Shown here in pieces: positions 4,918 through 26,186 of a stretch of 31,877 nt of DNA. Under the pieces are notes generated by a model. That model did not search any database. It was not told where the DNA came from and was given only the letters and a program-made list of their open reading frames with translations. The position numbers and the translations under genes were made by a program. Source of the DNA: Anaerolineae bacterium (GTDB lineage Bacteria > Chloroflexota > Anaerolineae > J102); the NCBI GenBank assembly GCA_026992375.1, contig JALXAF010000525.1, forward strand, positions 1-31,877, read 5' to 3'. How positions within the stretch are numbered: position 1 is the first letter of the stretch; each line of letters opens with the position of its first letter.

Positions 4918-4925
4918 GTAGATTC

Positions 4926-4950
4926 CAGTGTTCAGTGTTCAGTGTTCAGT
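4926..4950. repeat. Heptamer tandem (CAGTGTT)x3.5
   Basis: Read directly. Lies just upstream of the topA start and abuts MITE A. Confidence 0.9.
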
Positions 4951-5152
4951 AGACGTTATCGGAAATAAGAGGGTTGTTGCTCTCGTCTGGCATCATGCTG
5001 TTGCCGACAAAGCTCAATGATTAATGAACAATGATTAAAGGCTAAATCAACGTGGGTTTCACTTTAATCATTACTCATCAATCATTGATTCGGGCATGAT
5101 TGAGCGGAAGGTTGAGAGTCCAGCTCACCGTAGGTTATTTCCGATAATGTCG
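4951..5152. mobile_element. MITE family A, copy 1 (202 bp)
   Basis: TIR AGACGTTATCGGAAATAA / TTATTTCCGATAATGTCG; AGT duplicated at 4948-4950 and 5153-5155. Same length and highly similar to 20973-21174. Confidence 0.9.
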
Positions 5153-18973: not shown

Positions 18974-19121
18974 GCAACTACTAAGGCCTCACCGCCACTT
19001 TTTGCCGCGAAGACACGAAGAAGATGAAGGCGTGATTTCTTTATTTTTTCCTGCGCGCCTTCGAAAAACTTCGAGCCTTTGCGGCTTTTATAGGCTTAAA
19101 GTCGAGTACGTTAGCAATTAC
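18974..19121. mobile_element. MITE family C, copy 1 (148 bp, no secondary insertion)
   Basis: TIR GCAACTACTAA / TTAGCAATTAC; exact 8-bp TSD AAAATTTA at 18966-18973 and 19122-19129. Confidence 0.88.
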
Positions 19122-19202: not shown

Positions 19203-20867
19203 ATGATCCGTCCCATCTTCAATGAAACTATTTTTGATCTAATGCGTTTGCCCGAAGCGAAAATCCGACGTCGATTCAACGCGTTCAATGCCCATTTGCT
19301 CGATCTTTACGAGGAAGTGCTGCCTTATCGTCATACGCCTCGCACCGTCATCGTTGTACCCAGTCTGACGCTAGACCAGGAGGTGTTGGCGAAAATCCCG
19401 GGCATTAACTTCTACGAACAGCGGCTTTTGTATTATCTGATGATGCTGCAATTGCCGCGCACCCAGGTGATCTTCGTCACCAGCGAGTCTATCGATCCCT
19501 CCATCGTGGATTATTTCCTGAATCTGCTGCCTGGCGTGCCCGGCTCCCACGCCCGGGACCGCCTCACCCTGCTGGCCTGCCACGATGCATCCTCCCTCTC
19601 TCTCACCGAAAAGATATTGGCCCGCCCCCGGCTCATCCAGCGCATCCGCGAGAGCATTCGCTATCCTAATTCCGCCTACATGGAATGCTTCAACTCCACG
19701 CCCCACGAGCGGCGGCTTTCGGTGCTGCTCGGCGTGCCGCTCTACGCCCTGGATCCGGATCTGGCGAAACTGGGCAACAAAAGCTGGAACCGGCAATTGT
19801 TCAGAGAGGCGGGCGTGCTCTTCCCCGATGGTTTTGAGCATTTGCAGGATGAACGGGATGTAATCGAGGCGCTGGCCGCGCTCAAGAGAAAATACCCAGA
19901 CCTGCGTCGCACCGTGGTCAAGCTAAACGAGGGCTTTTCGGGCGAGGGCAACGCTATCTTCGATTTTAGCGACGCGCCAGAAGGTGACGGAATCGAATCG
20001 TGGGTGGAAAAGGAACTGCCTCGCAGGCTGCGATTCGAAAATCCCACCGAGACATATGAACGTTTTATGAACAAATTTCAGGAGATGGAGGGCATTGTCG
20101 AGGTTTTCATTGAAGGCGAAAACAAGCGTTCACCTTCGGTGCAGGGTCTCATCAATCCTCTGGGCCAGGGAACCGTGGTCTCAACCCACGAGCAGATTTT
20201 GGGCGGCCCCACCAAACAGGTGTACCTTGGCGCGACATTTCCCGCCAGCGAAGATTATCGGCTGGAATTGCAGGAGATCGGGCGACGCGTAGGCCACGCA
20301 CTGAGCACCCGCGGGGCCATCGGGCGGTTTTCGGTGGATTTCGTCTCGGTTCCCCGGCCTGATGGCGGCTGGGATCACTATTCGCTGGAGATCAACTTAC
20401 GCAAGGGCGGCACCACTCATCCTTTTATGACCCTGAAGTTCCTCACCCATGGCGAGTACAACCTGGAAGACGGCATGTATTACACAGGCACGGGGCAGCC
20501 CCGGTACTATTACGCCACCGACAATCTACACAGCGACGCCTATAAGGGCCTGACGCCCGAAGATCTGATGGACATCGCCCTCTGCGAGGGCCTGCACTTT
20601 CATGGCGGCACCCAGGAAGGCATGGTCTTTCATCTCATCGGCGCGCTTTCCGAATATGGCAAGCTGGGCATGGTGGCCATCGGCTCCACGCCCGAACGGG
20701 CCGAATCCTATTACTACACCACTCTCGAAGCGCTGGATCGCGTCACCCAAAGTGGCGGGAAATGTCAAAATCCGCCACGGGATCCTTCCGAGGCCACCGC
20801 TCCCACGCACTTCACTCCATGGTGGGACGCCCATGAACCGCAGGAAGATGAGAAGACGACGTTTTGA
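19203..20867 (+). CDS. PGM1-related ATP-grasp peptide ligase family protein
   Basis: VVVPSL...YEQRLL, LGNKS..RQLF, VVKLNEGFSGEGN, SPSVQ, THEQILGG...YLGATFPA, GRFSVDFV, EINLRKGGTTHP. Start set at the ATG after the SD. Confidence 0.8.
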   Translation: MIRPIFNETIFDLMRLPEAKIRRRFNAFNAHLLDLYEEVLPYRHTPRTVIVVPSLTLDQEVLAKIPGINFYEQRLLYYLMMLQLPRTQVIFVTSESIDPSIVDYFLNLLPGVPGSHARDRLTLLACHDASSLSLTEKILARPRLIQRIRESIRYPNSAYMECFNSTPHERRLSVLLGVPLYALDPDLAKLGNKSWNRQLFREAGVLFPDGFEHLQDERDVIEALAALKRKYPDLRRTVVKLNEGFSGEGNAIFDFSDAPEGDGIESWVEKELPRRLRFENPTETYERFMNKFQEMEGIVEVFIEGENKRSPSVQGLINPLGQGTVVSTHEQILGGPTKQVYLGATFPASEDYRLELQEIGRRVGHALSTRGAIGRFSVDFVSVPRPDGGWDHYSLEINLRKGGTTHPFMTLKFLTHGEYNLEDGMYYTGTGQPRYYYATDNLHSDAYKGLTPEDLMDIALCEGLHFHGGTQEGMVFHLIGALSEYGKLGMVAIGSTPERAESYYYTTLEALDRVTQSGGKCQNPPRDPSEATAPTHFTPWWDAHEPQEDEKTTF

Positions 20868-20972
20868 GGGATTTTTCGTAGCTACTAAGGTCTCATCACC
20901 ACTTTTTGCCACGAAGACACGAAGAACACGAAGACATGAAGAAGATGATGGCGTGAAGTATTTTTCTTTATT

Positions 20973-21174
20973 AGATGTTATCGGAAATAAGAAAGCTGTT
21001 TCTCACGTCTGGCGTCATACTGCTGCCGACAGAACTCAATGATTAATGAATAATGATTAAAGGCTAAATCAACGTGGTTTTCACTTTAATCATTACTCAT
21101 TGATCTTTGATTCGGGCATGATTGGGCGCAAGGTTGATAGCTCGCCTCGCCGCAGGTTGTTTCCGATAATGTCT
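20973..21174. mobile_element. MITE family A, copy 2 (202 bp), nested in C2
   Basis: TIR AGATGTTATCGGAAATAA / TTGTTTCCGATAATGTCT; ATT duplicated at 20970-20972 and 21175-21177. Confidence 0.9.
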
Positions 21175-21244
21175 ATTTTTCTCTTCGCGTCTTCGAAAGA
21201 CTTCGAGCCTTCGTGGCTTTTTGAGGCTTAAAGTCGAGTACGTT

Positions 21245-21475
21245 GTGACTATATAGCTCACATATCAAATTTTGAAGATTAGAGCCGCCAACAGGCGACA
21301 TGCCACGACCGTCAAGCTTCAAACGTCACATTGCTGTAATGATGTCATGGTCCATTGTAGGATTCATCTTTGGCGATAACATCCTGACGTTTGACGTTTT
21401 ACGCATGACGCGGGTTGGCGTCAATGGCAATCATTGCTGCAGCAAGCGTTTTCTCGCCGTGACCTGCATAGTTTC
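21245..21475. mobile_element. MITE family D (231 bp), nested in C2
   Basis: Exact 8-bp TSD AGTACGTT at 21237-21244 and 21476-21483. Imperfect TIR GTGACTATATAGCTCAC vs GAAACTATGCAGGTCAC (12/17). Confidence 0.8.
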
Positions 21476-21573
21476 AGTACGTTAGCAGTTACGATTTTTC
21501 TCCGTCTCCTCCGTGCCTCCGTAGTGAGATGACCTTTTTCCAGTGGGCTTAACCAAGCCAGAAGAGCCGACCT

Positions 21574-22695
21574 TTATCGCCTGCCGCCCGTAAGCTCGGA
21601 TTGCAGGGCTTCCAACGCCTCCCAGTCGCCGTCGGCCGCCAGCCGCGCCTGCTCGGGCCAGGTGTCGGGCTTTGCTAGCCTGAAGCGGGACCCTGCATTG
21701 GCCAGAATCCGGCGTAAGTCCTCGATATCAGCGCTGGCAAGTTGAGCAAAGGTGGAGATGCCGGCTTCGTTGAGGAGCTGTGAGATTTTGGGGCCAATGC
21801 CTTCGATGATGCGCAGATCATCCGCCTGAGACGCCGCGTCCGGGAGCTCGACTTCTTCACCGCGAGACGGCGTGTCTGCGGTCAGGGACGAATCACCTTC
21901 CTCGACAATAGCTGTATCGGCTTGGGGCAGAGCCACATCCATCTTGGGCGTCTCAACGTCGACCTCAGAGATATCGACAACGGTCTCGGGCGTCTCTATG
22001 TCGACTTCTGGCGCTTCGCTCTCCACAACCAGCGCATCTGCATCAACCCCGAGCGCTTCCGGTTCGATCTCGGGCGTCTCAACGTCGACCTCAGAGATAT
22101 CGACAACGGTCTCGGGCGTCTCTATGTCGACTTCTGGCGCTTCGCTCTCCATAGCCAGCGCGTCTGCATCAACCCCGAGCGCTTCCGGTTCGATCTCGGG
22201 CGTCTCAACGTCGACCTCAGAGATATCGACAATGGTCTCGGGCGTCTCTATGTCGACTTCTGGCGCTTCGCTCTCCACAGCCAGCGCATCTGCATCAACC
22301 CCGAGTGCTTCCGGTTCGATCTCGGGCGTCTCAATCTCGACTTCGGGCGTCGATTGTTCAGTGTAATCCGAACCGGCGCTCATCTCGGCGAAGCTCGTCG
22401 CTAATTCCAATTGATGTTGCGTGTCTGCCAGCGCAACATTCAGTGCATCGATTTCCTGCGCCATCTCTCGACGCTCTGCCTCATAAGACTTCAATTTTGC
22501 GTTCAATTCAGCAGCCTGATCTTGTAGCGCTTGCAGTCGTTCATTCGTCGCTTTGAGCGCTGCATTTTCTGCCTGAAGATCATCGCATCGTTTTTGCCAC
22601 TTGGCAACGCGTCGCCGCCCCAAGAAGAAATGATCGATGAGCCATTCGATTATCCATCCGACAAGTGCGCCAACGAAAAAACTCAACCAGTCCAT
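21574..22695 (-). CDS. Membrane-anchored protein: TM helix, coiled coil, acidic tandem repeats, C-terminal HhH (DUF4332-like) domain
   Basis: MDWLSFFVGALVGW after SD GGAGG; C-terminal DDLRIIEGIGPKISQLLNEAGISTFAQLA...W.EQA.LAADG.W. Confidence 0.82.
   Translation of the reverse strand: MDWLSFFVGALVGWIIEWLIDHFFLGRRRVAKWQKRCDDLQAENAALKATNERLQALQDQAAELNAKLKSYEAERREMAQEIDALNVALADTQHQLELATSFAEMSAGSDYTEQSTPEVEIETPEIEPEALGVDADALAVESEAPEVDIETPETIVDISEVDVETPEIEPEALGVDADALAMESEAPEVDIETPETVVDISEVDVETPEIEPEALGVDADALVVESEAPEVDIETPETVVDISEVDVETPKMDVALPQADTAIVEEGDSSLTADTPSRGEEVELPDAASQADDLRIIEGIGPKISQLLNEAGISTFAQLASADIEDLRRILANAGSRFRLAKPDTWPEQARLAADGDWEALEALQSELTGGRR
21945..22345. repeat. In-frame 126-bp tandem repeat x3 (42 aa)
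   Basis: CGTCTCAA unit starts at 21949, 22075, 22201 and 22327; units differ by a few substitutions. Confidence 0.95.
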
Positions 22696-22762
22696 GAAAA
22701 AACCTCCAGTGATCAAAAAGGTGTGAAAAAAGAGAATGTCGAGAATGATATGGTAACGATTT

Positions 22763-25668: not shown

Positions 25669-25725
25669 TTTGAATCATCCTTTACTGTGGGGGAATGGGG
25701 GAAAGCACCGAAAATTCGATGTATG

Positions 25726-25876
25726 GTAACTACTAAGGTCGTCACCGGTCGTCACCCGAAAACCACTAAGAGCACTAAGATACAAAGGCACAAAGGGGAA
25801 TTTATACATTTTTCTTCGTGTTCTTAGTGTCTTTGCGCCCTCTGTGGTTTGTTATTCGGGGTGCGTTAGCAGTTAC
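25726..25876. mobile_element. MITE family C, copy 3 (151 bp, different interior)
   Basis: TIR GTAACTACTAA / TTAGCAGTTAC. The left TSD GATGTATG (25718-25725) is restored on the right once MITE B and one copy of its TSD are removed (GATG 25877-25880 + TATG 26158-26161). Confidence 0.85.
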
Positions 25877-25880
25877 GATG

Positions 25881-26149
25881 GGGTGCGTTCCAATTTGGGG
25901 GCAAATTTGCATTTCTTGCCAGAACCTGCCGATTGAAATCAGGGCTGGGGGCAACCCCCTCCTTTTGTTCCTCCCCCGCTCCGAGACGGGCGGGGGGGGC
26001 GATAAGGAAGTTTGATTGGATGGGCCGCTTGTTTGCCTGCGCAGACAGGCCAATTTGCGCCCGAAAATGTCCTCGCAGGAGGACATGCGGCGGAACGCCC
26101 TCAGAACCGAATTCTATTCGGCCAGTGCGCCCCAAATTGAAACGCATCC
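25881..26149. mobile_element. MITE family B, complete copy (269 bp)
   Basis: TIR GGGTGCGTTCCAATTTGGGG vs GGATGCGTTTCAATTTGGGG (18/20); exact TSD TTACGATG at 25873-25880 and 26150-26157. Confidence 0.9.
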
Positions 26150-26186
26150 TTACGATGTATGACATTATACCATCCTTTTGCAAAAC

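Follow-up and report, generated by a model that had tools for sequence, protein, structure and literature searches.

A 615-bp insertion that separates two genes in an uncultured Anaerolineae bacterium from hydrothermal vents is made up of three gene-less small transposons, with one host element of a family that we call C carrying one element each of families A and D. We consider it highly probable (about 0.88) that these 615 bp go back to three separate transpositions, each mediated in trans by a transposase whose gene lies elsewhere. A, C, and D appear to be undescribed families of a well-known kind, i.e., non-autonomous DNA transposons (MITEs). The window, meaning the whole stretch of DNA that was analysed (31,877 nucleotides), is the entire contig C525 of an assembly (G000) that comprises 3.18 Mb in 526 contigs with 59% GC and 87.6% completeness. 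The stack and two free copies in the same window are composed as follows (TSD, target duplication flanking an element):

20870-20877: left TSD copy of C, 8 bp, GATTTTTC (from sequence reading and repeat finding)
20878-20972, plus strand: left arm of C, with a terminal repeat that starts GTAGCTACTAAGG (family consensus GTAACTACTAAGG)
20910-20943: tandem duplication of 17 bp in the left arm of C
20970-20972: left TSD of A, ATT, identical with the last 3 nt of the left arm of C and located in the apical loop of the C hairpin
20973-21174, plus strand: A element, 202 bp, with terminal repeats of 18-19 nt, AGATGTTATCGGAAATAA ... TTTCCGATAATGTCT
21175-21177: right TSD copy of A, 3 bp, ATT
21178-21244, plus strand: right arm of C as far as the D insertion
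21237-21244: left TSD of D, AGTACGTT, identical with the inner part of the right terminal repeat of C
21245-21475, plus strand: D element of 231 bp that ends in the terminal repeats GTGACTATATAG ... CTGCATAGTTTC (consensus GTGACTATACAG / GTAACTATACAG)
21476-21483: right TSD copy of D, 8 bp, AGTACGTT
21484-21492, plus strand: final 9 nt of C, AGCAGTTAC
21493-21500: right TSD copy of C, 8 bp, GATTTTTC
18974-19121, plus strand: uninterrupted C copy, flanked by its TSD AAAATTTA at 18966-73 and 19122-29
4951-5152, plus strand: free A copy, flanked by its TSD, AGT, at 4948-50 and 5153-55

The host MITE C including its inserts thus spans 20878-21492, and its left TSD lies 2 nt past the end of the upstream plus-strand gene (stop codon at 20865-20867), in a spacer between convergent genes. 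A sequence-only reading of this DNA had proposed nested MITEs with intact TSDs, and this layout held at every coordinate, as did the presence of the uninterrupted C copy and of the free A copy in the window; the direct and inverted repeats of the stack were recovered independently by a repeat finder. Removal of A, D, and one copy of each of their TSDs leaves a reconstructed C of 171 bp that agrees with the family consensus (153 bp) at 148 positions, with the excess consisting of the 17-bp tandem duplication and one further base. Its right end, AGTACGTTAGCAGTTAC, is still whole because the D insertion duplicated its 8-bp target. The A copy of the stack is 92% identical to its family consensus and equally to its closest copy (contig C308), and the D copy is 84% identical to the consensus of its family. 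Contigs from hydrothermal-vent sequencing runs of four studies cross the outer and inner junctions with zero differences, each run spanning some of the junctions, which rules out an assembly artefact as the origin of the stack.

Copies of the three families were counted by BLAST on the genome, their boundaries were taken from alignments with 40-nt flanks, and shuffled flank pairs served as control for the TSDs. The genome holds 48 near-full copies of C, 25 of A, and 15 of D (consensus sizes of 153 bp, 202 bp, and 238 bp, respectively) plus many fragments. In all three families, conservation drops abruptly where the terminal repeats end, and no credible open reading frame was found inside the A, C, or D element of the stack. 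A perfect 8-bp TSD flanks 23 of the 48 C copies (at least 7 of 8 positions in 32/48), compared to a mean of 0.46 perfect TSDs among shuffled pairs, and the same holds for 6 of the 15 D copies (at least 7 of 8 in 9/15). For A, perfect 3-bp TSDs of the form ANT were seen in 14 of 25 copies, compared to an average of 6.3 over 2000 shuffles, none of which exceeded 13. None of the other TSD lengths that we tried genome-wide fits any of the families, so that the lengths are fixed at 8 (C), 3 (A), and 8 (D), and the TSD sequences, target sites, and orientations vary among the copies. Copies across the genome therefore carry the flanking duplications that the sequence-only reading had taken as the mark of transposition. 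The families are small, non-coding, and multicopy, with terminal inverted repeats, TSDs of fixed length, empty sites for free copies, and autonomous elements that have the same ends, as is expected of MITEs.

These separate copies also bear on the idea that the 615 bp are an indivisible composite that moves as a unit and whose internal "TSDs" are simply part of its sequence. Mobilisation as a unit would be conceivable since both ends of C are intact after the D insertion. However, neither G000 nor 40 relatives hold a second copy of the composite, only separate copies of A, C, and D, and the internal elements have dozens of free copies with variable TSDs of their own. An indivisible 615-bp unit in related genomes had been named beforehand as an observation that would speak against nested insertion, and no other genome carries such a unit. 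We regard the composite as extremely improbable and retain the reading of three separate insertions.

Judged by their sequence, the ends of A are those of an IS5-superfamily, Harbinger-like DDE_Tnp_4 IS. A 1.1-kb IS in the same assembly (contig C110:468-1565) has perfect 18-nt repeats, AGACATTATCGGAAATAA, that are one base off those of A at each end, is flanked by the TSD AAT/AAT, and encodes a transposase with DDE_Tnp_4 (PF13359, 7.6e-22) and HTH_Tnp_4 (PF13613, 1.1e-7) domains. It is the sole DDE_Tnp_4 gene of its kind in the assembly, and its reading frame is broken near codon 62, where a run of A has shifted by 1 nt. The most similar relatives (82-87% identity) are intact, each with one ORF of 313 aa in a 1094-bp element that has the same repeats. 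In two metagenome copies of the A-type IS the flanking triplets differ (AAT and ATT), which we regard as uninformative. The C110 transposase scores 68.8 bits against NCBIfam transpos_IS5_4, below the cut-off of 140, and we therefore assign no IS5 subgroup to the partner of A. An IS982-family transposase gene (NF033520, 198 bits; L001:1587-2567 on contig C110) is located 20 bp from the A-type IS.

The consensus flanks of A, A-N-T-A-G-A-C ... G-T-C-T-A-N-T, can also be parsed as TA + GAC...GTC + TA, which would make A a Tc1/IS630-type element with a TA duplication rather than an IS5/Harbinger element with a duplication of 3 bp. This reading is refuted by the empty sites, given that those in three congeners (G001, G011, and G008) as well as the loop of the C consensus hold one triplet and not the hexamer A-N-T-A-N-T. 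Furthermore, the middle base agrees in 14 of the 16 A copies with ANT on both sides, the free copy in the window ends GTCG and not GTCTA, and the IS with matching repeats encodes DDE_Tnp_4 instead of a Tc1/IS630 transposase, which leaves the TA duplication with next to no probability. The 3-bp duplication of an IS5/Harbinger-type element is thus the reading of A that we follow below.

C and D start with GTAACT or GTGACT and make 8-bp duplications, which indicates the IS66 family, whose terminal repeats begin GTAA and which generates 8-bp repeats (PMC11946415). As far as sequence can tell, their ends are those of two different single-ORF lineages of IS66-family (ISBst12-group) ISs. Complete ISs of both types are found on vent metagenome contigs: those of C type are 1581 bp long with a 491-aa IS66 transposase and GTAACTACTAAGGTA at both ends, and those of D type are 1522-1535 bp long with a transposase of 485-492 aa and GTAACTATACAGGTA at both ends. 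Either type has a single ORF (no tnpA/tnpB) with PF03050, PF13005, and PF20042 (zf-IS66 and DDE_Tnp_IS66 domains), and the 2 transposases are 44% identical. Among congeners, G001 encodes an IS66 transposase of D type (NCBIfam transpos_IS66 NF033517, 284 bits vs. a cut-off of 180) that starts 52 bp after an exact GTAACTATACAGG, and G011 has a decayed transposase copy of C type that starts 60 bp after an exact GTAACTACTAAGG. The G000 assembly (87.6% complete) yielded no IS66-type transposase and not even a fragment of one, neither in a Pfam search nor by tblastn with both IS66 lineages. Similarity between MITEs and ISs is limited to the ends, covering 13-19 nt over all three families and 13-15 nt for C and D. 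The complete IS66-type ISs lack matching 8-bp flanks on the metagenome contigs, which are possibly chimeric across the repeat, and the 8-bp footprint is therefore shown here for the MITEs only.

Termini of the GTAACT/GTGACT type are abundant in the 3.2-Mb genome (about 400, of which about 330 are C-like and about 60 D-like) and fall into many subfamilies. The ISBst12-type MITE subfamilies across G000 have a common architecture with a differing stem repeat (CACGAAG, CACGGAG, and CACTAAG/GCAAAGG types), and both arms of the stem change together between subfamilies.

It is possible that one ISBst12-type transposase moves both C and D, so that 2 rather than 3 transposases would have built the stack. 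Both families make 8-bp TSDs, the ends of the two IS types have GTAACTA and 11 of their first 15 nt in common, and the many subfamilies among the C-like termini suggest that the ends tolerate variation. Such cross-mobilisation nevertheless seems unlikely to us, since there are two IS lineages with perfect repeats of one type each and only distantly similar transposases (see above), and since the two IS types occur in different congeners (D type in G001, C type in G011). With one DDE_Tnp_4 partner for A and two IS66 partners for C and D (44% identity), we therefore count three transposases of two families. The sequence-only reading had expected at least two and probably three transposases, none of them encoded here, and had left the ends without a named IS family; the window indeed encodes none of the three, and the ends can now be assigned to IS66/ISBst12 (C and D) and to IS5-superfamily DDE_Tnp_4 elements (A). 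From these matching ends we infer that the named transposases were the actual movers of A, C, and D.

The stack could then have been assembled as follows. C, a hairpin-bodied MITE with ISBst12-group ends, would have inserted first, into the AT-rich octamer GATTTTTC past the upstream stop codon. Its hairpin folds with -28.8 kcal/mol (z = -4.9), and the AT-rich apical loop of 18 nt holds the ATT of A. At this ATT, A would later have inserted with the 3-bp duplication that is typical of its family (target ANT), and D, belonging to a second ISBst12-type lineage, would have inserted at AGTACGTT in the right terminal repeat of C with an 8-bp duplication. Both A and D would have entered after C, in either order relative to each other.

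Why the elements came to be nested may be a matter of base composition. The duplicated targets are 65-68% AT, and the reconstructed sites have 46-52% GC compared to 59% for the genome. Given such a preference for AT-rich targets in a 59% GC genome, the MITEs themselves would offer suitable targets, and nesting would follow. Under AT-rich octamer targeting, 1.4-3 nestings are expected per 110 TSD-verified insertions and 2 were observed, both of them in this stack, so that we reject nesting beyond chance. Targeting of hairpin loops was rejected as well, because empty sites reconstructed with 35 nt from either flank fold no better than low-GC control windows: their mean folding z is -0.23 for 82 C-class, -0.39 for 13 D-class, and -0.18 for 15 A insertions, and -0.18 for the control.

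Further nestings that involve other families are found on contigs C30, C354, C433, and C452. The window itself contains a second nest at 25718-26161, where the host is an ISBst12-type MITE from a further subfamily (25726-25876, TSD GATGTATG) whose right junction is interrupted by a GC-rich MITE of 269 bp (25881-26149, ends GGGTGCGTTCCAA.../...TTGAAACGCATCC); the 8-bp TSD of the latter, TTACGATG, consists of the last 4 nt of the host and 4 nt of the host's own TSD. The GC-rich family with these ends has about 100 copies, is nested in ISBst12-type MITEs also at C354:982-1335 and C433:3679-4056, and occurs at L021:2520-2750 in the spacer of congener G008 that is orthologous to the stack.

The distribution of C is narrow. 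Its right-end pattern was found among 185,579 species genomes (a scan from which records of the window's own genome were possibly left out) only in three Anaerolineae MAG species, plus one chance-level hit. Within the genus, C is present in G001, G007, G008, and G011 and was not found in seven others. Empty sites, which the sequence-only reading could only reconstruct, exist as real alleles in congeners for both free copies of the window: the site orthologous to the free A copy is empty, with a single AGT, in G001, G005, G011, and G008 (flanks 95-97% identical in the latter), and that of the free C copy is empty in G001. The target of the free A copy (4920-4950) lies in an array of GTGTTCA heptamers, of which G000 has two more units than G001 at its empty site. 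For the site of the stack itself, no empty allele turned up; among the relatives only G008 keeps both flanking genes, and the downstream gene is not adjacent in G001, G004, G005, G007, G009, and G011. For population alleles without A, D, or the whole stack, the run contigs gave only "joints" that come from paralogous C copies (<95% likeness) and are not assignable to this locus.

The free A copy is missing in all four congeners checked, including one with 95-97% identical flanks, and is therefore younger than that split. To this extent the earlier suggestion of fairly recent movement stands. It does not extend comfortably to the families as a whole, whose copies are 73-97% identical to their own consensus with no near-identical pairs seen, and the assembly holds no intact cognate transposase.

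At the site of the stack, the sister species G008 has the same right junction (…GTTAC followed by GATTTTTCTCC…), but the element there is a different ISBst12-type MITE of 145 bp (L021:2284-2429) that shares only 61% identity with C; its left flank is GATTTGGC, and the 8-bp site is GATTTTTC as in G000. The family of this MITE also occurs in G000 (87-89% identity), and each of the two genomes contains C as well as this family. A third family directly follows the stop codon of the same upstream gene in G011 (L023). It may be that one MITE was replaced in place by another with compatible ends, e.g., when a gap made by transposase was repaired from a paralogous template, though we find this rather doubtful; alternatively, two families independently struck one octamer.

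The upstream gene encodes an ATP-grasp ligase-like protein with a weak match to BesA. Its end (20835-20867) reads ...WWDAHEPQEDEKTTF* in the window and ...WWDAHASLENERTT* in G008, compared to ...WWDAHKPL* in five further congeners. This additional tail is similar to the GAAGA-rich internal arm of C and may be the remnant of an older MITE. Downstream of the stack, the minus-strand ORF at 21574-22716 contains three tandem 126-bp repeats (21938-22344; 95-100% identical) that correspond to protein repeats of 42 aa.

A long hairpin like that of C, just past a stop codon and between convergent genes, is placed where a terminator would be useful, and this raises the question whether A, C, and D are structured repeats that the host has domesticated (as terminators, sRNA genes, or REP-like elements) and that cluster for functional reasons. 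Against this, an Rfam search gave no match at threshold (the sole hit being a sub-threshold tRNA-Sec with E = 0.079), presence and absence vary between sister species, and target sites as well as orientations vary. Terminal repeats, TSDs, and cognate ISs account for the spread of the families without any function, making domestication very unlikely, and successive transposition remains the reading that we favour, although C may have a side effect on transcription termination.

Our literature search found no paper on MITEs in Anaerolineae and nothing useful on nested prokaryotic MITEs. The stack records an order of events (C before A and D) and ties undescribed MITE families of vent Anaerolineae to families of transposases. 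This link between MITEs and transposases helps to annotate MAGs that are broken at repeats, as illustrated by the roughly 330 C-like and 60 D-like termini of this genome. ISBst12-type IS66 elements have been little studied experimentally, and they have given rise to large MITE superfamilies. There is no sign of a new mechanism of transposition, and the locus is a clean but ordinary transposition record.

Nested insertions of MITEs and other transposons are well known in plants. The stack resembles them in that younger elements lie inside older ones and the TSD of every layer is intact, so that the order of events can be read; it differs in bringing together three MITE families of two IS families at one 615-bp bacterial site. 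Plant PIF/Tourist elements target TWA, unlike A with its target ANT. A is otherwise similar to the IS5 family and to PIF-Harbinger and Tourist-like MITEs in its 3-bp duplication and in having 18-nt repeats that match those of an IS encoding DDE_Tnp_4 and HTH_Tnp_4. Canonical Harbinger elements likewise make a 3-bp duplication (PMC12730594). For C and D, the closest point of comparison is ISDge4 of Deinococcus geothermalis, a member of the ISBst12 group of the IS66 family with repeats GTGACTACTCAGCA and GTAACTGCTCAGCA that makes an 8-bp duplication when transposing in the laboratory (PMC12898284). Ends beginning GTAACT/GTGACT (in C, GTAACTACTAAGG and GTAACTGCTAACG) and the 8-bp duplication are common to both sides, and the full-length partners of C and D resemble the ISBst12 group in having a single ORF (485-492 aa). 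C and D themselves differ from that group as non-coding derivatives of 150-240 bp that have only their terminal 13-15 nt in common with the ISs, and as apparently undescribed families limited to a subclade of a single uncultured genus within the Anaerolineae.
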